From the UHGV virus genome UHGV-0018978: 33,682 nt of DNA, one strand, 5' to 3'. Below are positions 1-29,700 of the stretch, piece by piece (positions within the stretch are counted from its first letter, which is position 1; each line of letters begins with the position of its first letter). The translations under genes and the position numbers were made by a program. The DNA is from a virus. The notes under the pieces were generated by a model. That model searched no databases. It was not told the origin of the DNA and was given only the letters and a program-made list of their open reading frames with translations.

Positions 1-675
1 CCTGAATAGCTTAGTGTTTAGTCGCTTTTTTGCGCGCTTATTCAGGAACCTGATGTAGCGATACTGATTAAATTTGTGTACCACGGCCCGCTCCTTATTA
101 GCCCGCAAATACACGCCTCGTTGCCCTCCACGCTTAATCGCGTTCATCGTTATCTCGTGATACCACTCACCATCCAGCTCGTAGAACGTGCTTTCATGGC
201 TGCCAATAAAATCAAAATTCGACGCCTGATATACCACACCAGCGCGTCCGCAGCGTTCGTCGGCAAAAGACTGAACCCACTCCACTGACGGATACAGTAG
301 TCTGATGGTTTTTAGCGCGTAGCTGATGGCCCGTGATTCAGAGTTGCGGGGCATGTCGTCGTGTAGCCACATGCGGTTCAGTTCCATATAGCCCCGGTTA
401 TCCGTTTCAAGCACGACCCGACGCCCTGAGTTGGGGTTAAGGGCATATCCCCACTGAAGAACGCCAACCAGATCACGTCCGCTGAATACGCCCAGATGCA
501 GGTAGGAGTTATTCACAAAACGGCGGGAATAGTGTTTTGTCTGAATGATTGTGCGGGCCAGCCAGCAGGATATGGTTTCAACGCGCAGTTCCCTTGAACC
601 ATAGCCGACAATACGGCCTTCATACTCAATAACGCAGGGTTTTGTCAGAATGCGTGATTTCTTCTCTTTTCCCAC
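1..675 (-). CDS. mom: DNA modification protein Mom, C-terminus truncated by the window start; start codon uncertain (probably non-AUG, e.g. GTG at 673-675)
   Basis: Open minus-strand frame from about 675 to position 1 with no stop, beginning inside the 3' end of com as in Mu. No in-frame ATG; a GTG with GGAG 7 nt upstream is the best start candidate. Identity rests on position and overlap with com. Confidence 0.6.
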
Positions 676-811
676 AATACAACTCCGTGGGATGCTCCTG
701 GGCACTCGATATGACAATGTAACGTTTACAGCGAGGGCACTTAATTTCTATATGCTTAAAACCTCCTTTAAACAGTAATTTATTGCAGTTTTTACAGCGA
801 ACAGAGTCCAT
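626..811 (-). CDS. com: Com, zinc-finger translational activator of mom
   Basis: Translation [33 protein letters not shown]...[16 protein letters not shown] has the Cys4 pattern and closely matches my recollection of Mu Com. ATG at 811 has a GGGGG Shine-Dalgarno upstream; the listed 81-aa ORF from 871 is probably an N-terminal over-extension. Confidence 0.8.
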
Positions 812-935
812 GTTTCCCCCTGTGTTATAACCAGATATGACCGCCCGGAGGGCTGGGGGATATTTAATCATAATTGATGCAAACCGACGATCGATATAAT
901 GATATCGATCGTCATAAACTATACAAAATGATTGC
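812..935 (-). promoter_or_regulatory. com-mom regulatory region (candidate Pmom) containing a 28-bp palindrome with two GATC sites at 886-913
   Basis: Intergenic gap between the chaperone stop (936) and com start. Sequence gACGATCGATAT-AATG-ATATCGATCGTc has 12-bp arms, each with a GATC (889-892 and 907-910). In Mu the mom promoter is controlled through clustered Dam sites. Confidence 0.5.
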
Positions 936-1505
936 TTAATCGCCTGATGTGAACGCTCTTACCTCGTCCAGGGTGGACAGCAGGGAAAGCTGCGCTTTCA
1001 TCTCTCGCTGGCGCTGATAAATTTCATCATTGCGATCAGCCTGCGCCTGAACCATTGCCGTAAGTAGTTCATCCAGTTGTTGCATTGACAACTTTACCTG
1101 CTGATTTTCCGCATCACTCCATACCATGGTTTTCGGTGCCGTGACTGATTTTGCTGACATCACCATCGGGTAAAGACGGGCCATCGAATCCGGTCCCCCG
1201 TTCCAGCTATGACCGTTCCATTCGAACGTGAACGGCTGCGCCTCCTGTTCTGTACGCCATTCTTCTATTTCCTGACGTTTGGCTGCTTTTACGGCCTCCA
1301 GCAGTTCTGGTGTCACGACGAACGGGGTAATCTCACCCCATCTCCCGCTTTGCAGTTCCTGCCAGACTCGCTGCCCTGTCTCTGCTGTATCAGTGGCAGT
1401 TGCCGTATACGGAACAGGGGCATCCATGCCATCAAACAACACCTCGCAGTCAATCGCGCCATTCTCAAGATAACGCGCATTTTCAATTCGTTTTATCTGC
1501 ATCAT
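936..1505 (-). CDS. Tail fibre assembly/chaperone protein of the second fibre module
   Basis: 189-aa ORF immediately downstream of the large fibre gene, 4-bp gap. Assignment is by position and size; the sequence is not a typical Tfa/U-type chaperone. Confidence 0.5.
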   Translation of the reverse strand: MMQIKRIENARYLENGAIDCEVLFDGMDAPVPYTATATDTAETGQRVWQELQSGRWGEITPFVVTPELLEAVKAAKRQEIEEWRTEQEAQPFTFEWNGHSWNGGPDSMARLYPMVMSAKSVTAPKTMVWSDAENQQVKLSMQQLDELLTAMVQAQADRNDEIYQRQREMKAQLSLLSTLDEVRAFTSGD

Positions 1506-1509
1506 CTAC

Positions 1510-2949
1510 CTACATAATACGGACAAACAGACCTGTTATCGAAGTACCTGCACTCACTTTAGTTGTGGGTTCCCCTGACAGTGCCACAAACGTCCCTGCC
1601 ATTGGATACGCCGAAGGCGGTGCAATTACAATCTGCGGAGTTGAGGTGCTCAGGCCATTATGGCTGTACGGCGCTGTAACAGAAATGGCAGCAAGTCTGG
1701 AGCCTGACACACCGCTTCCCCTGAAAATTCTTCCGTCTTCATCCATGTCATTTATGCAGTATGCGGCAAACACGACCCCGCCAATTCCTGGATAACCGTA
1801 ATTATTGGCTCTTCCGGCGATGGAACGTAGCGTATCCGCAATCCCTGTTTCACCCAGCTTCAACCTTTCCCAGCCAGTCAGATAACCATTACCTGTTGTC
1901 CAGTAACGGTTGTAATAAATATCGCCATTAATACCGTAGAAAATAATGACCTTTGCTGTATATCGCGGTTCCGGTGGATTATTGCGTACCTCAACCCAGC
2001 GGATGCTGACCACCCCGTTAAACAACACACCTCCGGATATGATTTTACTGCCACCATCAACAAAATATTCACCCGGCGTCGCATTCCTTGCCCAGGACAG
2101 AAAATCATCCTCTGTGTTAAAACGGATACGCTCTGCGGGCAAAAAAATATGCCCAAAACCAAATGCGCCAGGTGTCGCCAGACAGCCTTCAGTCCGGTCA
2201 CGAATGTCGCTCTGTGGCGTCATCGTGGCTGCGCTTTTCAGTCCAAGATTATCACGGGATTCCTGCTGAGCCTCTTCACCTTCATCAGCCAGCTCTGACA
2301 GGCGATTCGCCGTTTTCAGTGTCGCAGATAACGCGGTGTCAATATCCTCCCTGACATGCTCTGCATCAGATGCAGCCTGTTTAGCAGCTTCAGCGTCCTT
2401 TTTTACCTCCTCGGCGGCATTCTCAACCTGTGAGACCAGATTTTCGGCCTGTTGTTTACCCTCCGCAACCGCGTCGGCGTTCTGCTGAACACCTTCCGCC
2501 AGTTTTTTTACCTCTTCTTTTGCCCGGGCGGCAGCGTCTGCATGTTGCCCTGCCTGCTGCTCGCTTTCTGCTGCGGCTTCCGCGCTCTGCTGCGCCTGCT
2601 GTGCCAGTTCCTCGTATTTCTTCAGGGATTCCGGGCGCAGGTCAATATCGGTTGCGCCCAGAAAATCATTCAGCGAACCATCCGCTGAATCTTCATAAAC
2701 GCGGATGACACCGATTTCTGAAAGGCGCTGTACACTCTGCGTCAGGCGAACGCTGTACACGCCCGGCAGAACGGGGAAGTTATATTCCCCATTCTGTGTG
2801 GTGACGTGACTGAAAACACCTTTCAGAATCCCTGCACGGTTGTGCAGGGAGGTCAGTGTAATGGTTGCGCCGCCCAGCGGTTCTCCCGTGGGCGTTTTAA
2901 TCACACCTTTAAGCTGCGGCATCGGGACGCTCCGGCCAGTTGATGGCAT
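1510..2949 (-). CDS. Tail fibre protein (second fibre) with a central Ala/Glu/Gln-rich coiled-coil region
   Basis: 479-aa ORF. N-terminal beta-rich segment, then a long A/E/Q/K-rich segment (roughly DNA 2262-2622), then a Gly/Tyr/Asn-rich C-terminal domain. This architecture is typical of phage side tail fibres. Confidence 0.7.
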   Translation of the reverse strand: MPSTGRSVPMPQLKGVIKTPTGEPLGGATITLTSLHNRAGILKGVFSHVTTQNGEYNFPVLPGVYSVRLTQSVQRLSEIGVIRVYEDSADGSLNDFLGATDIDLRPESLKKYEELAQQAQQSAEAAAESEQQAGQHADAAARAKEEVKKLAEGVQQNADAVAEGKQQAENLVSQVENAAEEVKKDAEAAKQAASDAEHVREDIDTALSATLKTANRLSELADEGEEAQQESRDNLGLKSAATMTPQSDIRDRTEGCLATPGAFGFGHIFLPAERIRFNTEDDFLSWARNATPGEYFVDGGSKIISGGVLFNGVVSIRWVEVRNNPPEPRYTAKVIIFYGINGDIYYNRYWTTGNGYLTGWERLKLGETGIADTLRSIAGRANNYGYPGIGGVVFAAYCINDMDEDGRIFRGSGVSGSRLAAISVTAPYSHNGLSTSTPQIVIAPPSAYPMAGTFVALSGEPTTKVSAGTSITGLFVRIM

Positions 2950-3475
2950 TAAAGGAGGCTTCGTCAGTAACGGTGCTTAAATCCAGCGCCTTCACCGCTT
3001 TGATATATTCCATCCACTGCGTAAGACGGACTTTGTCATCGTCGCTGATGGTGCCCAGCTCCAGCTCGGTTTTCCAGTCGGAAGTGATTTCCTTTGCTTC
3101 ATTCAGCAAGCGCTGACGTTGCTTTTCTGCCAGTTTCGAATAATCAACAGGAACTGGCAGTACTTCGCCATCCCGGTAATACCAGCTGGCTTCGATGCCA
3201 AAACCCTCCGGCAGCTCGTCCACTTCCACAATAGTGAAGCCAGCCGGATAAAGACGGGACACGTCTTCCGCCATCGAATAAATCACGCCGGTTTCCGGGT
3301 GAATACACAATTTGTATTTCTTCGTGAATTTATCCAGTGATTCATAAAAATCCTGTCCGTCTTCACTGCGGAAATACTGAATGTTTTCACCATAAGGCAT
3401 CTCTTCCGGGTAATAACGCGTGACGTTTCTGAGTTCCATTATTTTCTCCTTAATTAGCCGGATACCGTTCGCCAT
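2909..3475 (-). CDS. Tail fibre assembly protein, Mu U / lambda Tfa-like
   Basis: 188-aa ORF directly after the first fibre gene. Assignment is by position, size and a resemblance to Tfa/U chaperones judged from memory, not from an alignment. Confidence 0.75.
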   Translation of the reverse strand: MANGIRLIKEKIMELRNVTRYYPEEMPYGENIQYFRSEDGQDFYESLDKFTKKYKLCIHPETGVIYSMAEDVSRLYPAGFTIVEVDELPEGFGIEASWYYRDGEVLPVPVDYSKLAEKQRQRLLNEAKEITSDWKTELELGTISDDDKVRLTQWMEYIKAVKALDLSTVTDEASFNAINWPERPDAAA

Positions 3476-4263
3476 CCGCCATTGATATAAATCTGGGTTT
3501 GTTTGTAATACACGCCGCCGATGTTATCCGCAGAACTTCTGCCAGTATCCTGAACGTTAATACCTGACAAAATACACCCTGAAGGCGCGCGGAATACCCA
3601 GGAAATTTCGTTACCACCGGGATTGTGAAACACTTCTCTGGTGTATCTGAAATCACGTACTGCACCAGAATCGGTGCTGCTGATGGTGATATCTCTGGTG
3701 CCATCAAACAGCACATTGTTAATCCTGCGGGCCGTCTGAAGCCGGGTTGCCGTTCCGGCATTGCCGCTGATATTGCTGATGGTGATATCCGAAGACAAAG
3801 CCATACCGTTGACCCTGCGGGTATTCGGTACAGCACTATTGGCTTTATTTACCGTGTCACGTAATGAAAGTGCATCGATAATTTCACTGGCTGTGTTTTT
3901 CCCGAGAATACCGCGCACAAACGCACTGAGCGGCGTTAATGCCATTGTGTCTTCGCCCGTAAAATACGGGAATGTATTATTCTGACCGGTTAATCCGGCA
4001 ATAGCTCCGGCTGAACCACTGTTCGTAATAAACAGTTTTTTCAGCGCTGTCATAATCTGGTCGGTTGTGTTTTTATCCGGTTTGATATTTGCCTGCCGGA
4101 GAATTTCCAGCAGTTCAGACTGAATAATATTAAACCAGTCCGGCCCCGGATACGTGGGCGGAATACCGTTCCCGCCTTCGGTGAAATAAAGCGTCGCCAT
4201 GCTTGATACCGCCGCGACAGGTGGCATCACCGGCACACCCGTCGGGTTATCCACATAAAACAT
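3454..4263 (-). CDS. Tail fibre protein, Mu S-like but short (269 aa)
   Basis: Sits immediately after the gp48-like gene and before the U-like chaperone, the position of S in Mu. N-terminus MFYVDNPTGVPVMPPVAA is of the fibre N-terminal type. Confidence 0.7.
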   Translation of the reverse strand: MFYVDNPTGVPVMPPVAAVSSMATLYFTEGGNGIPPTYPGPDWFNIIQSELLEILRQANIKPDKNTTDQIMTALKKLFITNSGSAGAIAGLTGQNNTFPYFTGEDTMALTPLSAFVRGILGKNTASEIIDALSLRDTVNKANSAVPNTRRVNGMALSSDITISNISGNAGTATRLQTARRINNVLFDGTRDITISSTDSGAVRDFRYTREVFHNPGGNEISWVFRAPSGCILSGINVQDTGRSSADNIGGVYYKQTQIYINGGWRTVSG

Positions 4264-4266
4264 AAA

Positions 4267-4851
4267 TTATTCTCCGGTGTAATAATATTCATATTCCGTA
4301 CCCGCCAGCCGGTAATGCTTCAGCAGGCATTCCAGCTCTCGGGTCCGTTCGCTGATTAATGGCGTCATAACGTCATCAATACAGGTAAACCGCCCGGCAT
4401 CGTTGTCCGGGACTTCCACTTTCAGCAGCCAGCGATACCGTGCCGGATGCAGCGGGTACATGCAGTCACGCAGGCAGTGGTGCGGCAGAACGGCCGTCAC
4501 CTTAATGGTGAAGCCCAGCGCCGCCGCTGCGGCTTCAATCTGCCAGGTTGCCAGCCCGCCTTTGCGGCGGTATTTCTCCACCACGGCCCGGAGGCGGGCT
4601 TCCGTTGTGGTGGCGGCAATTCCGCATTCCGGCAGCGCCAGATATTGCTCCCACTCCGGCAGCAGCTGGAGCGTGGTTTCCGGTCGCATCTCCACATGCA
4701 GGCGCGAGGCGTCGTATTCAACGCGGGTTAAACGCTCTGCAAGCGCCCTTAAAAAACGGTTTAAATCTGCATCGTTATCACGCGGCCATGCCTTACCCCG
4801 TGGCATGATTTGTTGCAGTGCGGTCAGCCATTCCGTCACGCTGTGAGCCAT
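4267..4851 (-). CDS. Tail/baseplate protein, Mu gp48-like
   Basis: 194-aa ORF between the J-like baseplate gene and the fibre gene, matching Mu synteny. Confidence 0.6.
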   Translation of the reverse strand: MAHSVTEWLTALQQIMPRGKAWPRDNDADLNRFLRALAERLTRVEYDASRLHVEMRPETTLQLLPEWEQYLALPECGIAATTTEARLRAVVEKYRRKGGLATWQIEAAAAALGFTIKVTAVLPHHCLRDCMYPLHPARYRWLLKVEVPDNDAGRFTCIDDVMTPLISERTRELECLLKHYRLAGTEYEYYYTGE

Positions 4852-5912
4852 GTCACCTCCCCGATGGTGATAAGCTCATCCATATCACTTGTGGTGTCTT
4901 CCCCGATGTTGAGGAAGTAATCCGTGATACCGGACGTCATACCGATGGCCGTGCGCAGCGAGGACACCGGCAGCATCTGACCGGGGGCCAGCGTTTTCTG
5001 TAATGCGGTCAGGTTTGCCCGGACGGCGTTCCTGTTCGCCTGGCTGTCTGGTGTCAGACGGATGGACAGGTCGATTTTCTTCAGTCTGACCTGTACCGGC
5101 CAGACCTCAATGCCGCCCGGTTTGCCCACCATAACGCCCGTGGCAGGGTGTTTGTGACAGAACAGATACTGCTCCATTGTCTTCAGGTCGTCCCGTGTGG
5201 GGATAATGTCTTCACGGTCATCATAAAGCCATGCCAGCCCGACTGTGCCGGGGCCGTGCCACGCATCCCATGCCCACGCGCGGCTGACGCCCGGTACTTC
5301 ACGCGCCCAGATGACGTAATCATGCAGTGCACCGCCCACCGGGGGATTGCGGCGCACATACAGCAGACGGTCCAGCAGCTCTGCGATGGATTCAATATCT
5401 GCGCCGCCGGTGATGCCACTTTCAGTCACCGCGCCTGTGCTGCCCGTTCCGGGCAACGGGGACAGCAGGGTCAGAACCGAACCGGCAGCAAGATTGCCCG
5501 CCACACCGGCTTCTTCAGCCTGCACGATGACAGTGACCTCGCCGTCCTGTACCTCGCCGGATGTGAGTACCTGATACACCTGATTCGTGTCGGACTGCAT
5601 CCGGGTTTCTGCCGGAATGGGGGACTGACTGGTGAAGGTCACCGGTCCGCTGGCAAAGGTGGCCTGCTTGCGGATAACCCCTTCATACGTTGCCGTTTTG
5701 ATAATGGTTTCATCATCAGACGCGGTGGACGGAATTATCTGGTCCTTAATCCAGCTCTGATGGTCGTATAAATCCCGAACCTGACTGCTGAATGACACGT
5801 TCAGCGCCTGCTCAACACTGACAGGCGGCAGCTTTTGCAGGCCGAGTTCATACGCAATATCTTTTTCGCCGTCGGCAATCAGTTTGCCCAGCGTGGGGAT
5901 TTCATACGGCAT
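4836..5912 (-). CDS. Baseplate J-like protein (Mu gp47-like)
   Basis: 358-aa ORF in the baseplate cluster; size and position match baseplate J family. Confidence 0.65.
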   Translation of the reverse strand: MPYEIPTLGKLIADGEKDIAYELGLQKLPPVSVEQALNVSFSSQVRDLYDHQSWIKDQIIPSTASDDETIIKTATYEGVIRKQATFASGPVTFTSQSPIPAETRMQSDTNQVYQVLTSGEVQDGEVTVIVQAEEAGVAGNLAAGSVLTLLSPLPGTGSTGAVTESGITGGADIESIAELLDRLLYVRRNPPVGGALHDYVIWAREVPGVSRAWAWDAWHGPGTVGLAWLYDDREDIIPTRDDLKTMEQYLFCHKHPATGVMVGKPGGIEVWPVQVRLKKIDLSIRLTPDSQANRNAVRANLTALQKTLAPGQMLPVSSLRTAIGMTSGITDYFLNIGEDTTSDMDELITIGEVTWLTA

Positions 5913-6354
5913 TAATGGTGGCCTCCCATCGGCGGGTGATTTCGATTGTGAGCGTGGTTTTGTCCGGGCGGGTTAACACCACCTGAAAGGCAATACAGTC
6001 AGGGATGATGATGCTGGCCGTGACGGTGGCGTTACGGGCGTAACCGGCCCGCAGCAGCGGTTGCATGGACAGCCTCGCGTAATCCTCCACACGCAGGCGG
6101 ACGTCTTCCGTCAGCTTTTCGCGCTCAAGCAGCCACAGGCGGGAACCCCACGAAAAATCGCTGTACGTGTCGCCCGGCCAGCCGCGCGGGTCGCCGGAGC
6201 TGTCAGGAATGACGTCATCGTCATCAGCACGGGCATCGGTGAAAAGGCAGATAAGAACCTGAGTGACCAGCCCCTCATCCAGTGAGAGGCCGTTATGGGT
6301 GACGGTGATGTCACCCCGTGAGAGCATGTTATTCCAGCGGATTCCTGTCGTCAT
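5902..6354 (-). CDS. Baseplate protein, Mu gp46-like
   Basis: 150-aa ORF in the conserved position between the V-like and J-like genes. Confidence 0.6.
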   Translation of the reverse strand: MTTGIRWNNMLSRGDITVTHNGLSLDEGLVTQVLICLFTDARADDDDVIPDSSGDPRGWPGDTYSDFSWGSRLWLLEREKLTEDVRLRVEDYARLSMQPLLRAGYARNATVTASIIIPDCIAFQVVLTRPDKTTLTIEITRRWEATINAV

Positions 6355-6887
6355 ACGGGCGGTGATGTATTCTCATTGTCGCCGTCCTTATGAATGTGTT
6401 CGATGAATGATTTACCGTTGATTCTGACATCTTCAGTAAATTCACAGGGACCGACGAATTTCATTTGTTTACCGATAATATTCAGCAATTCGTCGGCGGT
6501 GAGATTTACCGTTTTCCCTGAAACGTTTAATTGTTCTCCTGTGATTTCAATAATTCCGCCTTTCCTTAACGTGATATGTGATTTGCCGTCCTGGTGATAC
6601 AGCCGGACGTCGCCGGTGGACAAGCCTTTAGGGCGACATCGCTTATCCTCCACCGCGATGGCAACCAGCCCGTCACGCCGTCCGCCAACGGCCAGCACAA
6701 TGGCTTCAGAACCTTCCGGCGGAACGGAAGTAAACCCGTAGTTCTGGAAGCGTTCCACGTCGTCGTCAGTGGCATCTGCCAGCGTCTGGATTTGCAGGTT
6801 CTGCCGCTCCAGACTGTCAGACACCATGCGGACAACGGCACGATCAACCAGCAGCCGCAGACGGCGGGCAATGGCGTTTAATCCCAT
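6351..6887 (-). CDS. Baseplate assembly/spike protein V-like (Mu gp45-like)
   Basis: 178-aa ORF in the synteny position of the Mu baseplate spike. Confidence 0.6.
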   Translation of the reverse strand: MGLNAIARRLRLLVDRAVVRMVSDSLERQNLQIQTLADATDDDVERFQNYGFTSVPPEGSEAIVLAVGGRRDGLVAIAVEDKRCRPKGLSTGDVRLYHQDGKSHITLRKGGIIEITGEQLNVSGKTVNLTADELLNIIGKQMKFVGPCEFTEDVRINGKSFIEHIHKDGDNENTSPPV

Positions 6888-7948
6888 GTGGCCACCGCCT
6901 TTGTTTTCTTCGTCTTCGCTTTCATTTCCGGCATATCCAGTGATTCAGGCGGAACCAGCGCCAGAACCGTCATCCGCCCCTGTGCGCCATCCGTCCAGGT
7001 CACCCCGGATATCAGCCAGGTGGTTTTCAGGTTCTGAATGCTGTCGTCGATATCGACAAGGCGGTTGGTCTGCCACAGCGGGCCGCTGTCGCCCTGTTCG
7101 CGCCAGCCTGCCACCGTGATTTCCGTCGTGCGGGATTCCCCCAGCATCCGGGCTTTGTACCATTCCCCACGAATGCTGGCCCCGCCCACGGTCAGGCTGT
7201 CTTCATTGACCAGAATGCGCGGGCGGTAACGGTTAATTTCCGGGTCTTCGGTGATGTACTGGCGACCGCCCACCATCGGGGCAGGCTGGCTGTCCCACAG
7301 TTTGCCACCGGCACTGGTGGTGCCCTTGATGATGTACTGGCTGTTACGCTCCCGCCAGCTGAAGCGCCCACGGGCTGCGAGGATATTTTTCCCCAGCACC
7401 AGTGACACACCCGCGCGAACGGAAGAGGCGCGGGTGATAATCAGGTTACCCGCCCCGTCAGACGTCAGCAGAACGCCGCGCTGTTTTGCCAGCCGGTCGA
7501 GCAGTTCAAAACCCGTTTCACCCTGTTCCAGAACGACGGACGCAAACGCCTCCCCGGTCGGGGTTTCCGTGATGACGGTTATCCCGAACGGGCGGCAGAC
7601 ATCAGCCGCCACCTGTTCAAGCCGCACGCCTTTCCATTTCCCGGACGAATGCACCACAGAGCAGTCAACCAGGTCACCGGTTTTGTCGCGCCCCATGACG
7701 CGAATCTCCACGTTATCTGCGTCATAGCTGGGGATAAAATCATCGATATACCCTGTCAGCACGGTATCCGCACCCAGCCTGACCGTGCAGGGTTGCCCCT
7801 CACGAATCACGCGCGGTGCCGCCGCTGACCAGCGGGTTGTCACACTGAGATCAAACTCACCGGCAATCGCCTTCAGGGAACGGCTGACGGACATTTCCGT
7901 CCAGCCTTCCCACAGTTTGCCGTCAACGGTAAGAATCACGGATTCCAT
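6878..7948 (-). CDS. Tail protein, Mu gpP / P2 gpD (late control D) family
   Basis: 356-aa ORF downstream of the DNA circulation gene; size and position fit Mu gpP. Confidence 0.6.
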   Translation of the reverse strand: MESVILTVDGKLWEGWTEMSVSRSLKAIAGEFDLSVTTRWSAAAPRVIREGQPCTVRLGADTVLTGYIDDFIPSYDADNVEIRVMGRDKTGDLVDCSVVHSSGKWKGVRLEQVAADVCRPFGITVITETPTGEAFASVVLEQGETGFELLDRLAKQRGVLLTSDGAGNLIITRASSVRAGVSLVLGKNILAARGRFSWRERNSQYIIKGTTSAGGKLWDSQPAPMVGGRQYITEDPEINRYRPRILVNEDSLTVGGASIRGEWYKARMLGESRTTEITVAGWREQGDSGPLWQTNRLVDIDDSIQNLKTTWLISGVTWTDGAQGRMTVLALVPPESLDMPEMKAKTKKTKAVATWD

Positions 7949-9222
7949 CAGTCGGTAATCTCCACAGGTTGCGTCGGCAGAATGAATGACGGATGGCGCA
8001 GGCGGTTACGCTTCACGATTTCATCCCGTCGGCTGGTGTCACCATGCTCGCGCCATGCCAGCAATGCGGCAGATGTGGTTGTGGTCAACGTCACCTGCCG
8101 GGTTTCCGGCAGACGGGCGGCACGCTCGCGGGCATCCGTAATCACGGCCTGCCGTAAATCGCGCAGCGTTCGCCACAATGCCCGCTGGTTATTTTCCACC
8201 GCCGCCACCGCCTGCTCATGAAGTTCAGCCGCCAGCGTGTCACCGGCAGATAACGCCGCATCACTGGTATCGAACGTCATCGAGGCCACAGCATTTGCCT
8301 GTCCCAGCAGGGTTTCCAGCACAACCACCTGGCGGAAGTCGTCAATGTTCTTCTGCAGGCTGACAGATACCGGCTGATAATCCGGTGACAGCCCGATAGC
8401 AAAGCCAATTTCGCCGTCTGCCACGCTGCCTGGCTTCACGGTGATATCTTCCGGCAGTGCGCCGGTGGCAACCTGTCGGGCGCGTTCTCCGGCCCACTGG
8501 TTGCGTAATGTCGTGTAAACCGCCAGTGCTTCGGGTGGTTCCGTCACCAGATCAACCACGCCGTCGATGAACGAGGACAGCTCACTGACCAGGCGCCCCG
8601 GCGTGGCAATAATGGTTCCGGCCATCTCCTTAAAATGGTTCAGCCTGTCCATCCACTGATTCAGTGCTGCCGGTAGCGTGGGCAGGTTAGCCACAAGGTT
8701 TTCCATATCGGCCAGAAAGCTGTCGGCCATCTCACCCAGCCCGTCGAGTGCGCCGAACCAGTCGCCATCGTCAATGGCGGCTTTCACCGCATCAATGCCC
8801 GTCAGCACTTCCTGCTGCGTGTTATCCGCCGCAGACGGGAACAGGCGCTCGCCTGCCTCAAACACTTCAAAAGTGACATACGCAATGCCGTCTTCCTCCG
8901 TGCTGAGGCGATGGGTGACCTTGCCAACCTGTACGGTCTGTATCCCGAACCACGGGTGGATAAGCTCGCCGGGGCCGGGGGTATTGAGCGCGTCTAAAAG
9001 GGCGTTTAAATCATCCCGGAAGTTTTTACCTGGCAGCTTTGCGTTAATCTGCTGTTGCCCCGGAACGGCCCCGTTATCATCCGTCCAGGCGGTTTCACTC
9101 CGGGGGTAAGCACGGGGAATAGCCCTGCGGCCACCGGTGCCTTCTGTATCCACCAGAAAGAAGGGAACGCCGCGAAACGAGGCGTCGCGCAGCCCGTCCC
9201 ATTTGCCATTGCCTGTTGTCAT
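7948..9222 (-). CDS. Mu-like DNA circulation protein
   Basis: 424-aa ORF directly downstream of the tape measure gene, as in Mu-like phages. Confidence 0.55.
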   Translation of the reverse strand: MTTGNGKWDGLRDASFRGVPFFLVDTEGTGGRRAIPRAYPRSETAWTDDNGAVPGQQQINAKLPGKNFRDDLNALLDALNTPGPGELIHPWFGIQTVQVGKVTHRLSTEEDGIAYVTFEVFEAGERLFPSAADNTQQEVLTGIDAVKAAIDDGDWFGALDGLGEMADSFLADMENLVANLPTLPAALNQWMDRLNHFKEMAGTIIATPGRLVSELSSFIDGVVDLVTEPPEALAVYTTLRNQWAGERARQVATGALPEDITVKPGSVADGEIGFAIGLSPDYQPVSVSLQKNIDDFRQVVVLETLLGQANAVASMTFDTSDAALSAGDTLAAELHEQAVAAVENNQRALWRTLRDLRQAVITDARERAARLPETRQVTLTTTTSAALLAWREHGDTSRRDEIVKRNRLRHPSFILPTQPVEITD

Positions 9223-11069
9223 TACCCTTGCTCCACGCTGGTGACGCCAGCCTGCGCACTGAGTCTGACGCCGGGTTGATCCACTCTGACACTTTTCACG
9301 CGGGCATCACCTTCCACCACCACACGGATTTCCCCCTGCAATTGCTGCGGAAGGAAAGGATAATTCTGTGTGGGTTGCATACCTGCCCACGGTCGCGGGT
9401 CGGCAATGTTCTTGTCACCCAGCGAGTTGAACCAGTCCGTTACCTTACGCCAGACGGACTCGAGCGCTTTCTGGTTATCCTGGCTTTGTTGCGCGAACTC
9501 GCGCTCCCACGGGCTGGCGCTGGCATTACCGGCAACGAATTTTGTAAGGCTGTCAACCTCACCCGGCTGGGCATATTGCGTGGTCAGAAAATCGTAAAAC
9601 TCCAGAGCACCGGCAATGATGCCAGCGCCTTTACCTGCCTTTCCTCCACGCTTACCCGACCCCCGAGGATTGCGGGGATTGCGCGATGAATCCGGTGCAT
9701 CCGGCAGACCGCCGGTATTACCATTCATCCCGCTACTGCCCATATTGACCACATACACCGGCATCACGCCGGAGCCGAAAACATCCGTGATGCCACCGGG
9801 TATCCCTTTGCCTTTCCCTTTGGGATTCATGATGTCGTGGATGGTTTTACCGAACTGATACGTCTTTCTGATGGCGATAATGCCGCCCAGCGCGATCGCC
9901 ATATATTTACCGACCTGCAACCAGTTCTGGACAGTGTTCTGGTCCACGCTGTTGAGCGCATCAGCCAGGTCCTGAACGGGCTTTGCCAGTTGCCCTTCAG
10001 CAAAACGTTGCCATTCGTTATTCAGTGACTGTATTGCGGCATTAAAGCCTTCGGCATTGGTCTGTGCGGCCTTTTGCGTGGAACCCAGCTCAATCGTGCC
10101 GTAAATCATTTGTTCCATCAGTTGCCGGTTTTCAGGGTTGAGCAGCGCCTTAATCCCCTGCATCCCGGTCTGATCAAACACATCCTGAAGTTTCAGCGGG
10201 TCGTATTTGGCCCGTTTAAGGATTTCCATCATCAGCTCATAGGGCTTTTTGATGTCTTTTGTGCCTTTGACAAAAACGTCAATGCCGTTTTTTTTCAGGA
10301 ACTCGATGTTCTTTTTGTCCGACAGGGAAGCATACATGGCCTGAATACTGGTTACCGTCTCATCAATGCTGCCTTTGTTTTTGGCGAACACCTGAGCAAA
10401 TGCCCCCATCTGGGCAATGGCTTCCGGTCCCTGATCCTGAATGATGGAAAACAGTTTCGGGGCAGCGCGGGCAACATCGGCAACGCTTACAGACCCCACT
10501 GCGAACTGCGAATACAGCCTGTCCATCATGTTATTGACCGCATCAGCACCCCGGACGTTTTTTTCCCAGAACTGGGCCATCAGCCCGGCTGCAACCTGTC
10601 CGTCAACACCGAACGCCTGCATCATCAACCCCATGTTGCGGAGGTTGTCCACCACATACTGATAATCACCGGTTTTCCCCAGAAGTTCGCTGGCCCCCTG
10701 ACCAAGCGCAGAAGCATCAATACGAATATCTTTCTGGTTCGATACATCCCTGATTTTGTCGTGAAGCGTCTTTACCTGTTCAGTGGTTAACTGGGCATCC
10801 GTACCCATCCGGCGCATCTGCGCATCAAAATCGGCAACCTGTTTGATGGTAAGACTACTGCCAAGCCCGGCTATCATTGCCGTGTAGCGGTTACCAAGCG
10901 TATCAAGGCCGCGTCCTGCGGCCTCCGTTGTGGCTTTGACAAGGCGCATGGCCTTCTGATGGTTCCGGGCGAACTGCGACATATTTGCGCCGTACTGCCG
11001 GGCTTTGGCGGTCAGGTTCCCGGCAAGGTTGATCATGATTTCCGTGCTGAGACGGTTACCTGTTGCCAT
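9222..11069 (-). CDS. Tail tape measure protein
   Basis: 615-aa ORF between the tail chaperone and baseplate genes; Gly-rich stretches (GKGKGIPGG, GSGKRGGKAGKGAG) and predicted helical regions. Confidence 0.7.
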   Translation of the reverse strand: MATGNRLSTEIMINLAGNLTAKARQYGANMSQFARNHQKAMRLVKATTEAAGRGLDTLGNRYTAMIAGLGSSLTIKQVADFDAQMRRMGTDAQLTTEQVKTLHDKIRDVSNQKDIRIDASALGQGASELLGKTGDYQYVVDNLRNMGLMMQAFGVDGQVAAGLMAQFWEKNVRGADAVNNMMDRLYSQFAVGSVSVADVARAAPKLFSIIQDQGPEAIAQMGAFAQVFAKNKGSIDETVTSIQAMYASLSDKKNIEFLKKNGIDVFVKGTKDIKKPYELMMEILKRAKYDPLKLQDVFDQTGMQGIKALLNPENRQLMEQMIYGTIELGSTQKAAQTNAEGFNAAIQSLNNEWQRFAEGQLAKPVQDLADALNSVDQNTVQNWLQVGKYMAIALGGIIAIRKTYQFGKTIHDIMNPKGKGKGIPGGITDVFGSGVMPVYVVNMGSSGMNGNTGGLPDAPDSSRNPRNPRGSGKRGGKAGKGAGIIAGALEFYDFLTTQYAQPGEVDSLTKFVAGNASASPWEREFAQQSQDNQKALESVWRKVTDWFNSLGDKNIADPRPWAGMQPTQNYPFLPQQLQGEIRVVVEGDARVKSVRVDQPGVRLSAQAGVTSVEQG

Positions 11070-11155
11070 GCTGTTTCTCCAGTTGCTTTATCAGGCGGAA
11101 CAGCTGCCGCAGGGGCAGCTGTTCCAGGTACTGAATGCTGAATCGCTGAGACAGG

Positions 11156-11551
11156 TTAACCAGCAGGTTCATCAGTGCCGCCGCCAGCGGCATCAGTTCG
11201 CCCCCGCGTTGCCACCTCCTCAAGCATTTCATCCAGCGCAGCAGCTTTGGTGCTGATAAGCTCAAGGTCTGCCGGGTGGAGCATTCGCAGCTGTTTCATG
11301 TCCAGCGGACCGGGGATATTGCCGATGGCCGCAACCTGACGGCGCATCATCTCCAGCCCCATCAGCACTTCAGAACAGTAGGCCACCGCCTTTCCGTTCC
11401 CACCCAGGACGACGCGTTCTGCGGCCAGTTGTGCATCAATCACATCACTGGCGGTCAGTTCGCGCAGCTTCACGGTTTTATGCAGGGTTTCATCTGCCGT
11501 ACCTTTGCCGGTCAGAAGCCCATGTTTCAGTTCAAATGTCATTTCAGCCAT
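11156..11551 (-). CDS. Tail assembly chaperone (Mu gp41-like)
   Basis: 131-aa acidic ORF between tail tube and tape measure, the conserved chaperone slot. An overlapping ORF at 11056-11265 in another frame might be a frameshift extension. Confidence 0.5.
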   Translation of the reverse strand: MAEMTFELKHGLLTGKGTADETLHKTVKLRELTASDVIDAQLAAERVVLGGNGKAVAYCSEVLMGLEMMRRQVAAIGNIPGPLDMKQLRMLHPADLELISTKAAALDEMLEEVATRGRTDAAGGGTDEPAG

Positions 11552-11552
11552 G

Positions 11553-11909
11553 TCACACCTTCACGCATTTTTCACCGATAAAGTTGGCACTGATGGTGCC
11601 GGAATCCTCGTCCAGCTCTGCCGGGTTATCCGTGGCGGAACCCGTCATCATGTAGTTCAGGCCATTGTCGCCGTAGAACATCACCGTGACGTCTTCCCAG
11701 CTGCTGATTTCAATCACGTCCATATCCGCAGCCGCCGCAATGGTCACCTTGATGGACGGCGAGGCCATCTTGCTGGAGATGCCCCAGACCTTGCCGCCGC
11801 CCATATGCTGGGTGCGGCTGAAGCCGCCCGGATTCAGTATGGATTTCCCCTCGGTTTTAATTTCGCGGCCATTCACGCGAATGGTCGCCATGCCAAGAAT
11901 TTTTGCCAT
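11553..11909 (-). CDS. Tail tube protein
   Basis: 118-aa ORF immediately downstream of the sheath gene. Confidence 0.7.
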   Translation of the reverse strand: MAKILGMATIRVNGREIKTEGKSILNPGGFSRTQHMGGGKVWGISSKMASPSIKVTIAAAADMDVIEISSWEDVTVMFYGDNGLNYMMTGSATDNPAELDEDSGTISANFIGEKCVKV

Positions 11910-11918
11910 GCGGCCCCC

Positions 11919-13394
11919 TTAAAGTTTGAACTGAATCAGGCCTGCCAGCACACGCAGCTGGTTCACCAGATTCGGGTGGCAGATAAAGTTCAGGCGGTTT
12001 TTATCGCTGCTGTCGCGTGTCACCTGAAGCGTGTCCTTGTAATCGCTGAAGTTCTCCACAAGGCCCGCAGGAATAAGTTCGGTCTGGCAGATATCCAGCA
12101 GCTCTGCGGTGCACAGCTTCGGCGTCATCACCGGCTGACCGGCATCCAGTGAGTCCAGCACGTCATCATCTGCCAGCTTGTGGCGCGGATAACGGTTCGT
12201 GAAACGATTTTTGATGATGTAACGGATACGGCCCAGCGTGGCTGGGGACTGCACATCAAGGTACGACACATCCGCATCACCGTACTGATTAACCCGGTAC
12301 ATGGTGATTTCACGCTCGATGCAGACGTTATCCCCGGCGTCCACCATGTGTGTGGCAATGCCGTCATGCAGCAGCAGGTTACGTTCCGGCATATCCCAGC
12401 GAACATTACGCGCAGGCGGCAGAATGCCGGTCAGGACCAGCGTCTGAAGCGGACGCGCCGGGTCAATGGCAAGGTGATACGCTGCCGTTGCGCCGTATGA
12501 CGCGGCCCACATCCACGCCGGGTGCGGTGACAGGTTGGTGCCGATACAGCTAATCAGCCAGTCATTGCGGGTTTCACCAAACGTGCCTGTCTCGCCGTGT
12601 GTGCCACGAAACGCCGTCCACAACTGCGCCTCCATCATTTTGAGCGGCCCCCAGCGGTTCAGCAGTTCATCACGCAGGGTGTTCAGGCTTTGCGTGTCGG
12701 TGAACGGGGCGATGATATCGGTAAACCACTCCGGGCCGATGGCCGCAACGGCATCCGCCATTTCCGGTGTCCCGGTGCCGCCGGTAAACGCGGTGGCAGT
12801 CACCTTCACACCTGCCGGGAAGGCCTCACCGGTGTAGTAGTTCAGGCGAACGTCGGCACCGTTGCCGGTGACACCGTGCCAGTTCACGGTCAGCTCCACG
12901 GTATCCGTGGCATCATCCTTCACCGCAGCGATCACCTGTGTGGCAGGCTTTTTCGTCACCGCATCAGCAATGGCTTTTGCAATGTTTTCCTTCGTGTCCC
13001 CGGCGCTCACGCTCACCTGAACGGAGACACCGTTAATCAGCAGCGCCACCGTTCCGGCTTCAGTCGCTGTACCCAGTACGGTCAGCGTGGCTTTTGCGGC
13101 AGCGCCTTCTGGCGCGGCAACCGGCATTGCCCAGGTTTCCGTGTACGTGTTGGCACGACGCAGCATTTTGAGCATTTCAGCCAGCATCGACCCTTTGCCA
13201 TAAAGCTGGTCTGCCTGGCTGTCACTGGTGATGCGGGTCAGTGACAGGGCGTCTGCGCTGCCGGACGATACCGCATGGCCCATGACCAGAATTTTTCGGC
13301 TTTGCGCGGATGCACCATCCAGCGCCTGTGAATTGTCGATATCGATCCAGACAAGCGGGACACGAATATCATCAGGAATTGAACCCAGCGACAT
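11919..13394 (-). CDS. Contractile tail sheath protein
   Basis: About 491 aa. Start moved to the ATG at 13394, which has an AAGAGGAAG Shine-Dalgarno 7 nt upstream; the listed ORF runs to 13463. Confidence 0.75.
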   Translation of the reverse strand: MSLGSIPDDIRVPLVWIDIDNSQALDGASAQSRKILVMGHAVSSGSADALSLTRITSDSQADQLYGKGSMLAEMLKMLRRANTYTETWAMPVAAPEGAAAKATLTVLGTATEAGTVALLINGVSVQVSVSAGDTKENIAKAIADAVTKKPATQVIAAVKDDATDTVELTVNWHGVTGNGADVRLNYYTGEAFPAGVKVTATAFTGGTGTPEMADAVAAIGPEWFTDIIAPFTDTQSLNTLRDELLNRWGPLKMMEAQLWTAFRGTHGETGTFGETRNDWLISCIGTNLSPHPAWMWAASYGATAAYHLAIDPARPLQTLVLTGILPPARNVRWDMPERNLLLHDGIATHMVDAGDNVCIEREITMYRVNQYGDADVSYLDVQSPATLGRIRYIIKNRFTNRYPRHKLADDDVLDSLDAGQPVMTPKLCTAELLDICQTELIPAGLVENFSDYKDTLQVTRDSSDKNRLNFICHPNLVNQLRVLAGLIQFKL

Positions 13395-13398
13395 AGAT

Positions 13399-13617
13399 TT
13401 ACTTCCTCTTTCGTTTCTGGTTTTTGGTTTCAGAGAGGGGTGTTTCTGCCGGAATGTCAGCAATCACCACATCCCCCTCGGCTTCACGACGTCGCCAGTA
13501 CGCCCCGACGTCGAGACGTTCCCCTTCCGGGGATAAATGCGCGCCATCCGGTTTACGGACACGGACGTTTTCCCGCGCTGGCTTAATCAGTTTCTGTTCC
13601 ATCGTCACCCCGTACAT
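13399..13617 (-). CDS. Small conserved Mu-like phage protein, basic C-terminus
   Basis: 72-aa ORF ending KRKRK, stop just upstream of the sheath start. Start may be the internal Met at 13602. Confidence 0.45.
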   Translation of the reverse strand: MYGVTMEQKLIKPARENVRVRKPDGAHLSPEGERLDVGAYWRRREAEGDVVIADIPAETPLSETKNQKRKRK

Positions 13618-14194
13618 GGATCACGTCGTTAATTTCAGTGTGTTCACCGCTACGCAGCGTTGCCCCGAGGCGCAGGAAGTCCGGGAGCGCGGCGAGGTCA
13701 ATCTCTTCATCCAGCTGAAATTCCTGCTCCCACGTCACCGCCCACATGGTGACGCCCAGCCCGTCGAGGCTGGCGGAGTAAATGTTGTCTGCCCGTACAT
13801 CAGCAGCCATGCGTTCAGCCCCCATGCCCCCGGTGGCATCCGACGACAGCAGACGTTTGATCACCTTCCCGGTCAGCACTTCACAGCGCACATCGCGGGA
13901 ATACCCCCACGAATCCGTTGCCATGATGTAAGCCACCCAGGTAACCAGACCGGACAGCCCACCGCGCGGGTTGATATCCCGGATGCGCAGGGCAGCTACC
14001 CGGATACAGCCGGTACGACCGGACAGATAGCGTTTCACTTCTTCCGGGCTGTTGAACTGGCCGATGTGACGCTCCACCACGTCGGCCCGGTCAGGGGTTT
14101 TCCCCTGAAGTGCTGTTTTCAGCCAGGCCACAATGCGCTCTGCGGCCGCAACGGTGCTCCCCGGTGTGCGCAGTTCAGGGCGTTGTTCTGTCAT
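13583..14194 (-). CDS. Mu-like phage structural/morphogenesis protein
   Basis: 203-aa ORF in the head-tail joining block between head and sheath genes. Confidence 0.5.
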   Translation of the reverse strand: MTEQRPELRTPGSTVAAAERIVAWLKTALQGKTPDRADVVERHIGQFNSPEEVKRYLSGRTGCIRVAALRIRDINPRGGLSGLVTWVAYIMATDSWGYSRDVRCEVLTGKVIKRLLSSDATGGMGAERMAADVRADNIYSASLDGLGVTMWAVTWEQEFQLDEEIDLAALPDFLRLGATLRSGEHTEINDVIHVRGDDGTETD

Positions 14195-14736
14195 GGCAGA
14201 ACCTCCTTCCAGAAATGACTGATAACCTGTTGCAGCTCCTGCTGGTTGGCAGAAGACAGCCCCAGAAATTCACGTTGCGGAATGTTCATCATGCGGTTAT
14301 GTGCGCCGACGGTCTGCCAGACCGGATATTTCAGCGCCCGCCCGAAACACTGCGAGATAAGCCGCTTGTGGGCGCTGACCGGCACACTGCCGGAAAAGCC
14401 GTTATTCATGATGCGGGCATAATCCAGCGGTGAACCGATACGCACCACGCGGTTTTCCACGATGTACTGGATACTCTCCAGCAGATGGCCTTCACCACGC
14501 AGCAGGCTCTGGTTGCCGTGGCGGGTCTTTTTGTACCCGTCAGACCAGTCCGGCCAGCGTTCGCCACCCGGACTGGTTTTCTCATCGATGATGCGGCGGC
14601 GGGTCTGTGATTCCACCACCGCACCGATGCTTTCCAGCAGCTCTGCCTGCAATGAACCATCTGCCAGCTTTTCAACGGCGCGGCGGATATCCTCCAGACG
14701 CTGGTCACCGCTGACCTGTACAGAAATCCCCATCAC
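14191..14736 (-). CDS. Virion morphogenesis (tail completion) protein-like
   Basis: 181-aa ORF, 4-bp overlap with its neighbour; position matches Mu head-tail genes. Confidence 0.5.
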   Translation of the reverse strand: MMGISVQVSGDQRLEDIRRAVEKLADGSLQAELLESIGAVVESQTRRRIIDEKTSPGGERWPDWSDGYKKTRHGNQSLLRGEGHLLESIQYIVENRVVRIGSPLDYARIMNNGFSGSVPVSAHKRLISQCFGRALKYPVWQTVGAHNRMMNIPQREFLGLSSANQQELQQVISHFWKEVLP

Positions 14737-15170
14737 AGCACCCCTTTCAGGTTGTTACGGGTGAACAGCCGGGCATTGGCACCCACCACAATGATTTTCC
14801 CGTGGTCGGTTTCTGCCGGGGTGGCATACGTCGGCAGGCCCAGATCACGGGTGCCGTTCGCCATCTCACGCAGGGTTTTAATGGCGTCGTCGTAGCGTTT
14901 CTGGATCAGCTCCGTGATTTGATTGTCACGCTCTGACAACCAGTAAAACGCCAGCGATACCGCCACGCGTTGCAGCGGGCGCGGGATTTCCGTCACTCCC
15001 AGCGGCAGCTGGTAGCGGCGGGACAGAAACGAATCAATTTCCGCTTCGGCATCACTAATGGCCTGACGGATTTTGTCTTCATCCAGTTCGTTGGTTTCCC
15101 GGTTAATCGCCATGTTCCAGACAAGATTGCCGTCCGCGCGTAACAGGTCTTCCTGCGTGATATACCCCAT
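14733..15170 (-). CDS. Head-tail connector-like protein (Mu gp36-like)
   Basis: 145-aa ORF in the conserved block after the capsid gene. Confidence 0.5.
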   Translation of the reverse strand: MGYITQEDLLRADGNLVWNMAINRETNELDEDKIRQAISDAEAEIDSFLSRRYQLPLGVTEIPRPLQRVAVSLAFYWLSERDNQITELIQKRYDDAIKTLREMANGTRDLGLPTYATPAETDHGKIIVVGANARLFTRNNLKGVL

Positions 15171-15481
15171 CAGCCTTTCTCCGCTTCCTGGACAATCAGA
15201 TTCGGTTCAGCCATCAGGCGGGTGGCAACCGCAGCGCTCACCGCCACATCCTCACCGGCATGTGACCAGAAACGGCCACAGCGCCAAAACCCGTTTTCAG
15301 ACACGGCCCTGACGTTCAGCCGGACAGGGGCGTCACCCTGTACAGCAACCGGGTCTTCAGCCGGACGTGGTTCATTCGCCTGACCGTCAGCCACAATAAC
15401 GTCTGCCAGCGGTGCCGGGTTTTCCTGTGCAGCGCTGTTCTTTGCGGCTTTCGCGCCTTTGGTTCCTGCTTTTTCACTCAT
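15170..15481 (-). CDS. Small Ala/Pro-rich protein downstream of the major capsid gene
   Basis: 103-aa ORF with a low-complexity A/K/P/E-rich N-terminus and a C-terminal FWRCGRFW motif. Confidence 0.45.
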   Translation of the reverse strand: MSEKAGTKGAKAAKNSAAQENPAPLADVIVADGQANEPRPAEDPVAVQGDAPVRLNVRAVSENGFWRCGRFWSHAGEDVAVSAAVATRLMAEPNLIVQEAEKG

Positions 15482-15485
15482 GACT

Positions 15486-15503
15486 CTGCCTTTTAAAAGG
15501 CAG
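15486..15503 (-). terminator. Perfect 18-bp palindrome CTGCCTTTTAAAAGGCAG between capsid and the next gene (hairpin, function uncertain)
   Basis: Seen directly in the sequence in the 71-bp gap after the major capsid stop. No clear T-run follows, so it may be a stabiliser or attenuator rather than a terminator. Confidence 0.35.
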
Positions 15504-15552
15504 TTAAAAGGGCATTCACAGCACCTTTTAACTGCGGTTTACGGATGACGGG

Positions 15553-16458
15553 TTATGCCGGGGTGGTGATGTACGGGCTGTCCACGATCTCCACATCCTT
15601 GTACCAGATGTTGGAATCGCCGCCGTTAACCAGCATGGCGTCAACAATGAGCTTCGCGTCCGCACGGTTTTTCGGCCCCACCACAAGGGTGGTCGGGCGG
15701 ATGCCCAGCGGCTCACCGTTGGTGCCCTTCATGCCCCGCAGCAACTCATTGGCTTTTTTGTAGTTCTCCACCGTCAGTGCTGCACGGGAACCGACGGCGG
15801 TCTGCCAGAAGCCGAAGCCCGCATTACAGCGACCGTCCACGCCGTACAGGAACTCGTGGTTCTTGAAGGTGTGCTCGCTGTTCAGATCGTCCAGGGCTTC
15901 AAACTTAAAGGCGCGTCGCGTCTGCCAGATGATGGGTTTCAGTACCTGCGACTCATCAATCAGGAACCACGGCTCACCCTTGTCTGATGCCGGGGTGCCG
16001 ACAACGTTGCTGTACGTGCCGTCACCCAGCGGGTGGTCTTCATCAAAGAAGTTCTGGCCGTCAAAGCACAAAGTTTTGAATCCGGCACACAGCAGGGCGT
16101 AACACAGCTTGTCCGGGAACACGGCTGTCATACGTCCATAGCGTTCAGCAGTAATGCTGTACTGACCAATCTGGTCATCTTCAATGTGTTCGCGCTTAAC
16201 GCGAATGGAACTTTCCCAGAGTTTGTTGGTGATGGTGTAACCATAACCGTCCAGCGTTGCCAGCTGACGCTCACCGACCCATTCTTTGATGTCCGGTAAA
16301 TCTTTCATCCAGCCGTAGGTGTTGGAGGCTGACGAACTCGGCACCTCAGAAGCAATGCGATTCCACTGCGGTTCGACACCACTCAGTCCACGGGTAAAGG
16401 CGGCGCTCAGGCAGGTGGTCAGCGCGTGAAGGATTTCAGAACTGACAGTCTGTCCCAT
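15553..16458 (-). CDS. Major head (capsid) subunit, Mu T-like
   Basis: 301-aa ORF immediately downstream of the protease/scaffold gene; size and synteny match Mu T. Confidence 0.8.
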   Translation of the reverse strand: MGQTVSSEILHALTTCLSAAFTRGLSGVEPQWNRIASEVPSSSASNTYGWMKDLPDIKEWVGERQLATLDGYGYTITNKLWESSIRVKREHIEDDQIGQYSITAERYGRMTAVFPDKLCYALLCAGFKTLCFDGQNFFDEDHPLGDGTYSNVVGTPASDKGEPWFLIDESQVLKPIIWQTRRAFKFEALDDLNSEHTFKNHEFLYGVDGRCNAGFGFWQTAVGSRAALTVENYKKANELLRGMKGTNGEPLGIRPTTLVVGPKNRADAKLIVDAMLVNGGDSNIWYKDVEIVDSPYITTPA

Positions 16459-27772: not shown

Positions 27773-27775
27773 CGG

Positions 27776-28381: not shown

Positions 28382-28421
28382 AATTAAACGAATGTGAATT
28401 AATTAAATATTAATGGTGGTA

Positions 28422-28946: not shown

Positions 28947-28966
28947 ATAAATAAAGCTCCTGTTAA

Positions 28967-29686: not shown

Positions 29687-29700
29687 TGTCAGCGTTCCTT

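Follow-up and report, generated by a model that had tools for sequence, protein, structure and literature searches.

The tail-fibre genes of the transposable phages Mu and D108 lie on the invertible G segment, and inversion by the recombinase Gin switches the host range between the S-U and the S'-U' fibre sets; in Mu the order at this position is S-U, inverted U'-S', gin, com and mom. The 33,682-nucleotide stretch of the virus genome UHGV-0018978, which was analysed in its full length and is referred to here as the window, carries in the same position, i.e., between gp48 and com/mom, a cassette of four tail-fibre and fibre-chaperone genes (936-4263; Table 1). This raises the question whether the host range of this phage is switched by inversion as well and, if not, how its specificity is determined. 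An earlier note, made from the sequence alone, had proposed that two co-oriented fibre/chaperone modules take the place of the invertible segment. According to the comparisons, the tail-fibre region of this phage, an active Mu-type transposable prophage of E. coli, is fixed and non-invertible.

For the search for an inversion system, the Mu genes of the corresponding region were translated and compared by tblastn with the whole window. Mu Gin gave a best E value of only 2.3, and no resolvase is present in the Pfam-annotated gene lists, which span the whole phage genome and derive from contigs carrying proteins identical to those of the window. The Mu gix sequence has no match in the window at up to three mismatches, the palindromic gix core AAACCNNGGTTT yields chance-level matches only, and the inverted repeats in positions 1-6000 are short, imperfect and no better than chance-level. 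Moreover, there is no oppositely oriented second fibre/chaperone set with a common constant N-terminal exon. All four genes are on the minus strand, the plus-strand open reading frames (ORFs) listed over the region are shadows of the minus-strand genes, and the N-terminus of the second fibre (fibre 2) is its own and unrelated to that of the first fibre (fibre 1). Scans for terminators and promoters inside the cassette returned nothing meaningful. The claims of the earlier note that the window holds four co-oriented genes here and neither a gin-like or other serine recombinase gene nor an invertible segment, the latter now including a search for gix sites, are thus borne out.

As the closest substitute for read-level evidence, colinear independent copies of the prophage were used. 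The exact fibre 1 protein is encoded on at least 22 public contigs, eight of which were fetched for comparison. The chromosomal flank is a different one in each of them (an interrupted eutB, xdhC, flagellar genes, a shufflon gene, alkA, nhaB, a gene for an alcohol dehydrogenase, one for an amino-acid permease), and positions 1-5912 of the window are colinear and gap-free in all eight copies with an identity of 99.3-100%. The fibre region has one orientation only in all eight, and further contigs found via gp48 agree. Hence, an invertase gene, gix sites, an inverted second set and the occurrence of both orientations, which together characterize a Gin/Hin/Cin/Pin switch, are all missing at this locus. 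One of the flanks is 100% identical to E. coli, showing that E. coli is the host and that the phage transposes. The presence of the same prophage at eight E. coli sites, interrupting genes such as eutB, indicates recent active transposition, and one gut-metagenome-type assembly (ERZ27287155) matches the window with 100% identity over 5.9 kb. The gene order of the phage (c, ner, MuA, MuB, kil, gam, GemA, Mor, lysis, terminase, portal, F, protease, capsid, gp36, Phage_tail_S, sheath, tube, tape measure, DNA circularisation, gp44-48, the four fibre genes, com, mom) contains c/ner, MuA, MuB, Mor and Mu-type head and tail genes and, together with the random insertion sites, identifies it as a Mu-type transposable phage.

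Fibre 1 and the gene downstream of it have the organisation of a Mu S/U-type baseplate fibre module, with an S-type N-terminal anchor encoded right after gp48 and a Caudo_TAP chaperone (Tfa) encoded immediately downstream. The short S-like fibre of 269 amino acids (aa) and the U/Tfa-like chaperone described in the earlier note were therefore recognized correctly, as supported by phrog_1833, the match to Mu S and PF02413. In the Mu virion, six S trimers are each docked on the fibre-docking loop (133-155) of one gp48 (PMC11915804). The tip of fibre 1 shows 77% identity to the tail1 tip of the prophage Rac-SA53 and also weakly matches Mu S 437-502. From these similarities we infer that fibre 1 is a shortened version of the Mu baseplate fibre. 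It would act as a constant baseplate fibre with its N-terminus docking on the gp48 wedge like Mu S, and its tip would be folded by the adjacently encoded Tfa.

The second module belongs to different families. Residues 3-90 of fibre 2 match the N-terminal domain of Ur-lambda Stf (residues 4-92, PDB 9e7m; E 7e-9) and residues 3-204 match the collar spike gp40 of the myophage XM1 (PDB 7kjk; E 9e-8), i.e., an N-terminal collar domain is followed by a helical stalk and then by an exchangeable tip, as in Stf and collar-spike proteins (PF08400). In Ur-lambda, twelve Stf N-terminal domains form a collar around the gpV/gpM junction, which carries four accessory, non-essential side fibres (PMC12617516), and in the contractile phage XM1 the neck carries six gp40 trimers, which bind the head-completion and tail-terminator proteins (PMC10457771). 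Directly downstream, starting 4 nt past the fibre 2 stop, a protein with a PF14301 domain is encoded, an arrangement typical for the DUF4376 fibre chaperones. In Alteromonas phage V22 and in Campylobacter CJIE1 prophages, the fibres depend for their activity on DUF4376 proteins whose genes lie downstream of the fibre genes (PMC7289586, PMC7882524), and this experimental role supports the second chaperone that had been proposed for the locus. The protein shares 69-70% identity with phiP27 L57 and Rac-SA53 tail4, and its AlphaFold2 (AF2) model (predicted local distance difference test score, pLDDT, of 91) resembles nothing specific beyond a prefoldin-like helical hairpin. The equation of DUF4376 with Mu U that is found in the literature is unsupported at the sequence level; in Pfam scans Mu U and U' are Caudo_TAP proteins.

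The occurrence of this layout was assessed in 5,426 complete E. coli genomes. In 45 of them, at least 80% of the structural backbone (window 4267-16458) is covered, and 44 carry the classical Mu-type gin-to-com junction, so that the gin-less form is about as frequent as classical Mu. The junction of the DUF4376 gene to com is fully covered in 20 genomes and partially matched in 46. Six annotated relatives from E. coli that share this backbone encode gp48, a fibre of the 269-aa type, Tfa, a PF08400 fibre of varying completeness, usually the DUF4376 protein, com and mom; none of the six carries a recombinase and no gin was present in any relative inspected. A scan of contigs with gp48 added two distant Raoultella loci only. 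In this lineage and in phiP27, two fibre modules without gin are the rule, and the locus is an unremarkable example of a widespread type of prophage architecture.

Comparison of the same-backbone relatives separates constant from exchangeable parts of the cassette. Identities are 92-99% for gp47 and gp48, 80-99% for Tfa, 71-95% for fibre 1 and 92-100% for the first 100 residues of fibre 2. Beyond this point, identity drops to 29-67% in the fibre 2 stalk (29-69% with phiP27 and Rac-SA53 included) and to 25-49% in the tip, if the tip is present at all. Identical 470-aa fibre 2 proteins occur in E. coli. One relative encodes a fibre of 605 aa and lacks DUF4376, another one a fibre of 777 aa. In E. 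coli STEC719 (L020, 1986-4563), a 301-aa PF08400 anchor-plus-stalk protein and a small ORF are followed by a 456-aa SGNH/GDSL hydrolase, which replaces the usual tip and DUF4376 and may be an enzymatic, polysaccharide-modifying receptor-binding protein. In some relatives, fibre 2 stumps of approximately 112 residues run directly into the com region. A sublineage of RIVM strains (L022 and L031, E300082) encodes a gp48/YmfQ enlarged to 324 aa and, ahead of fibre 1, an additional protein of 352 aa, and here fibre 2 is a stump of this kind, comprising the N-terminal ~112 residues just before com. In this sublineage fibre 2 appears to be dispensable or decayed. Proteins with the N-terminus of a P2-type PF12571 tail-collar fibre (P0048, P0104, P0113) carry the distal region of fibre 2 as well, with up to 86% identity; one and the same receptor-binding tip is thus combined with different virion anchors. 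Relative to phiP27, identity is 38% for the anchor domain, 27-37% for the tail backbone and 69% for stalk and DUF4376. The anchor has diverged to about the same extent as the backbone, which indicates that the anchor travels with the virion backbone. As judged from these alignments, the whole of fibre 2 beyond the anchor forms, together with the chaperone, a cassette that can be exchanged or lost.

Taken together, we consider it reasonably probable that the phage combines a constant baseplate fibre, fibre 1, with an accessory side fibre, fibre 2, and that its specificity is changed by recombination and not by inversion. Fibre 2 would be a second, accessory side fibre on the same virion, anchored by its Stf-type N-terminal domain at a site different from that of fibre 1, and its distal receptor-binding part would be folded by the DUF4376 chaperone. 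Since sheath and wedges cover the junction of tube and baseplate in a contractile tail, the neck is the most plausible site for fibre 2; it might form a ring around the neck comparable to gp40 of XM1. The host range would be constitutive and probably dual. Over evolutionary time it would shift by recombination replacing fibre 2 beyond approximately residue 100 and its chaperone, without phase-variable inversion. The wording of the earlier note, 'fixed, or dual' in place of an inversion switch, is in agreement with the colinearity of the eight insertions; 'dual' is the better supported of its two options, with the display of both fibres being inferred.

Several observations weigh against this combination of a baseplate fibre and a side fibre. 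Both the joint presence of the two fibres on one virion and the place where fibre 2 is attached are putative. The AF2 model of the fibre 2 tip is of moderate confidence only (pLDDT 67) and has no significant fold match in the PDB, the best one being phage K gp144 at an E value of 0.017. The 181-aa Phage_tail_S-family protein and the adjacent 203-aa head-tail joining protein, which are the presumed neck proteins, show no detectable sequence match to any solved chain including XM1 gp4 and gp5, so that the neck location relies on anchor-domain homology and geometry; in the PDB sequence searches of the presumed neck proteins only the gp36 adaptor was matched, to Mu. Furthermore, the neck proteins are not detectably common with phiP27 despite the 38% identical anchor domain. 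In the literature on PF08400, myophage neck fibres and phiP27 fibres, no functional study of the cassette was found; the 'P27' of PMC12502783 was considered and rejected because it is a phage different from phiP27. A more far-reaching version, by analogy with XM1 gp40, would place the PF08400 fibre as a collar on the neck, so that receptor-binding proteins would be located at both ends of the tail and this neck fibre, swapped directly behind its anchor domain, would be the main exchangeable host-range element in a widespread prophage family of E. coli, Shigella and Salmonella. This version is tentative and, on present evidence, rather doubtful.

Alternatively, the four genes might encode one composite fibre, branched or serial, in which fibre 2 is attached to fibre 1 or to its retained Tfa. 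Rac-SA53, whose backbone is not detectably related, has the fibre 1 tip (77%), Tfa (70%), fibre 2 and DUF4376 (70%) as one common block, TfaMu was reported to remain on the fibre, and the long and short fibres of phiTE touch each other. However, in the two structures solved for homologues of the fibre 2 N-terminal domain, the binding partner is a ring of tail or neck proteins and not another fibre, and fibre 1 and Tfa are intact in relatives in which fibre 2 is truncated or deleted, which makes a composite fibre unlikely. It is also conceivable that the two fibres, being encoded in one operon and thus presumably co-produced, compete for the same baseplate sites, whereby a lysate would contain mixed specificities as a kind of bet-hedging without inversion. 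Such an alternative occupancy has little probability given that the N-termini are unrelated, one being Mu-S-like and the other a PF08400 collar domain, and that the docking loop of Mu gp48 binds the S-type N-terminus.

That fibre 2 and DUF4376 are passenger DNA, i.e., a lambdoid side-fibre cassette gained by recombination and unused by the virion, is suggested by the ~70% identity of the distal part and of DUF4376 to genes of unrelated prophages and by the reduction of fibre 2 to an N-terminal stump in some relatives. Against this, both ORFs are intact and translationally coupled and differ by only 1-3 nucleotides per gene in eight independent insertions. Moreover, the anchor is 92-100% conserved among phages with the same backbone compared with 38-39% in the distant phiP27 and Rac-SA53, suggesting co-evolution with the backbone, and the same gene order was retained in phiP27. 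The chance that the module is a mere passenger is accordingly small. Finally, E. coli encodes Pin-type invertases on other prophages, but cryptic switching by a host invertase acting in trans, by slipped-strand phase variation or by a diversity-generating retroelement is hardly credible: gix-like sites and inverted repeats are lacking, the slipped-strand scan revealed homopolymers of at most 7 nt and not a single tandem repeat, the gene lists covering the whole phage contain no reverse transcriptase, and all copies are colinear.

The coordinates of the region are compiled in Table 1. The ORFs of the cassette were first listed as 3454-4263, 2909-3475, 1510-2949 and 936-1505, all on the minus strand. 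The likely start of Tfa is the ATG at 3439, which is preceded by an AAGGAG ribosome-binding site and gives 176 aa, and that of fibre 2 is the ATG at 2922, overlapping the Tfa stop by 14 nt and giving 470 aa. The second fibre of the earlier note was correctly described as unrelated to the first, as seen from its PF08400 N-terminus, but its length of 479 aa has to be corrected accordingly. Fibre 1 starts 3 nt past the gp48 stop, and with gaps of 3-14 nt or overlaps and with ribosome-binding sites the four genes prolong the late baseplate operon. The com gene, which overlaps the start of mom as in Mu, begins at 811 and not at 871; the longest ORF of 81 aa, starting at 871, is over-extended according to Mu Com homology and gene calls. 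The DUF4376 gene ends 124 bp before com, and approximately 25 bp separate its end from the GATC cluster in the mom control region, so that the proximity of the gene to this region was rightly noted while the distance of 65 bp was not.

Table 1. Genes, domains and control region at positions 1-5912 of the window.
Feature	Position	Strand	Basis
gp47 / Baseplate_J homologue, baseplate wedge protein, 358 aa	4836..5912	-	PF04865 E 3e-59; 38% identity to Mu gp47
gp48 / YmfQ homologue, baseplate wedge protein, 194 aa	4267..4851	-	PF10076 E 5e-30; 31% identity to Mu gp48
Fibre 1, short Mu-S-like baseplate fibre, 269 aa	3454..4263	-	phrog_1833 tail fibre E 2e-106; 33% identity to Mu S residues 1-200
Fibre 1 N-terminal anchor, aa 1-81	4021..4263	-	match to Mu S residues 1-81, PDB 5yvq/9ki1, E 1e-21
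Fibre 1 C-terminal tip, aa 152-269	3457..3810	-	match to phiTE short tail fibre tip, PDB 9cuy, E 3e-13
Tfa / Mu U family tail fibre assembly chaperone, 176 aa	2909..3439	-	PF02413 Caudo_TAP E 8e-22; Mu U in PDB 5yvq_B E 6e-15
Fibre 2, Stf-type, 470 aa	1510..2922	-	PF08400 E 5e-28; phrog_2636 E 1e-146
Fibre 2 N-terminal collar/anchor domain, ~aa 1-95	2638..2922	-	lambda Stf and XM1 gp40 matches
Fibre 2 Ala/Glu/Gln-rich stalk, presumed coiled coil, ~aa 96-225	2248..2637	-	aligns with XM1 gp40 helical stalk
Fibre 2 distal receptor-binding region, aa 226-470	1513..2247	-	25-49% identity or absent in relatives
DUF4376 protein, presumed fibre 2 chaperone, 188-189 aa	936..1505	-	PF14301 E 1e-17
Intergenic mom control region	812..935	.	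GATC sites at 889 and 907
com, 61 aa	626..811	-	71% identity to Mu Com; PF10122; gene calls
mom, last ~20 nt beyond window edge	1..705	-	96% identity to Mu Mom residues 1-235; 89% nucleotide identity

The similarity to Mu is very unevenly distributed over the genome. In the tblastn comparison, identity to the Mu proteins is 96% for Mom and 71% for Com, compared with 38% for gp47, 31% for gp48, 33% for S residues 1-200 and 24-29% for U and U'. The structural proteins as a whole are only 31-40% identical to those of Mu, and their genes are too diverged to be detected by megablast. The only Mu-like stretches in nucleotides are com/mom (window 1-811, 89%) and an early region of approximately 3.8 kb, gam-gemA-mor (~26100-29900, 84-86%); at the nucleotide level both are Mu/SfMu/D108-like. 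On these identities, the genome is mosaic, with Mu-type modules set on another structural backbone, and is not a Mu or D108 that has lost gin; from the comparison with these two phages made in the earlier note, the absence of gin stands. The motif ACGATCGA..ATCGATCG at 812-935 closely resembles the GATC cluster at the gin end, upstream of Mu com, which is the Dam/OxyR control region of mom. GATC is otherwise scarce in the window, with 45 sites compared with ~131 expected. Seven sister copies differ from the window at 40-42 positions over 5.9 kb, 32 of which lie inside the 3' half of mom (window 16-427), corresponding to ~8% divergence there compared with ~0.2% elsewhere. This pattern suggests a recombinational allele replacement inside mom.

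As a summary, the textbook host-range switch of Mu, the inversion of G by Gin, is a feature of one lineage and does not apply to E. coli Mu-type prophages in general, and a comparably frequent lineage has a fixed fibre pair and appears to change its specificity by swapping the distal part of fibre 2. The clear swap point after the anchor domain is of use for prophage annotation, host-range prediction and fibre engineering. These data overturn nothing: each component is a member of a family already described, and sequences with this layout have been publicly available since phiP27. Some novelty may lie only in the idea, drawn by analogy, that the second fibre of Mu-type E. coli prophages is anchored at the neck and serves as a host-range element exchanged by recombination.

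Compared with the known systems, the locus shares with Mu and D108 the homologous N-terminus of the S-like fibre, the Tfa chaperone family and com/mom, which are 89% identical in nucleotides. Unlike in these phages, gin, gix and the inverted second set are absent, the second module is co-oriented and of another family, and fibre 1 comprises 269 aa compared with 504 aa for Mu S. Ur-lambda Stf and Tfa resemble the second module in the homologous N-terminal collar domain, the long stalk, the variable tip and the chaperone encoded downstream. However, the tail of lambda is non-contractile and its collar surrounds the gpV/gpM junction, which is buried under the sheath in a contractile tail, and the chaperone of the Stf-type fibre is a DUF4376 protein here and not a Caudo_TAP protein as in Ur-lambda. 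The Vibrio myophage XM1 has a contractile tail, and its gp40, a second receptor-binding protein besides the baseplate fibres, has the homologous N-terminal domain and the helical stalk; its tip is a tailspike-like domain, and its partners gp4 and gp5 are without a counterpart here that is detectable by sequence. The DUF4376 chaperones of the Alteromonas phages V22 (gp27) and A5 (gp9) and of Campylobacter CJIE1 carry a C-terminal PF14301 domain and are encoded just downstream of a fibre as in the present case, although the protein is only distantly related to them in sequence. An identical gene order is found in phiP27 and Rac-SA53. In phiP27, L53 (gp48-like), the fibre L54, the assembly protein L55, the fibre L56, to which fibre 2 is 43% identical, and L57 follow each other in the same order at the end of the genome. 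The order of tail1-tail4 in Rac-SA53 (baseplate fibre, Caudo_TAP chaperone, PF08400 fibre, DUF4376) matches as well. A Mu-type baseplate module clearly precedes the cassette in phiP27, whereas the backbone of Rac-SA53 is not detectably related. Both are integrase-type prophages with other head and early genes, in which the cassette abuts the attachment site, whereas in the phage described here it abuts the com/mom genes of a transposable phage.

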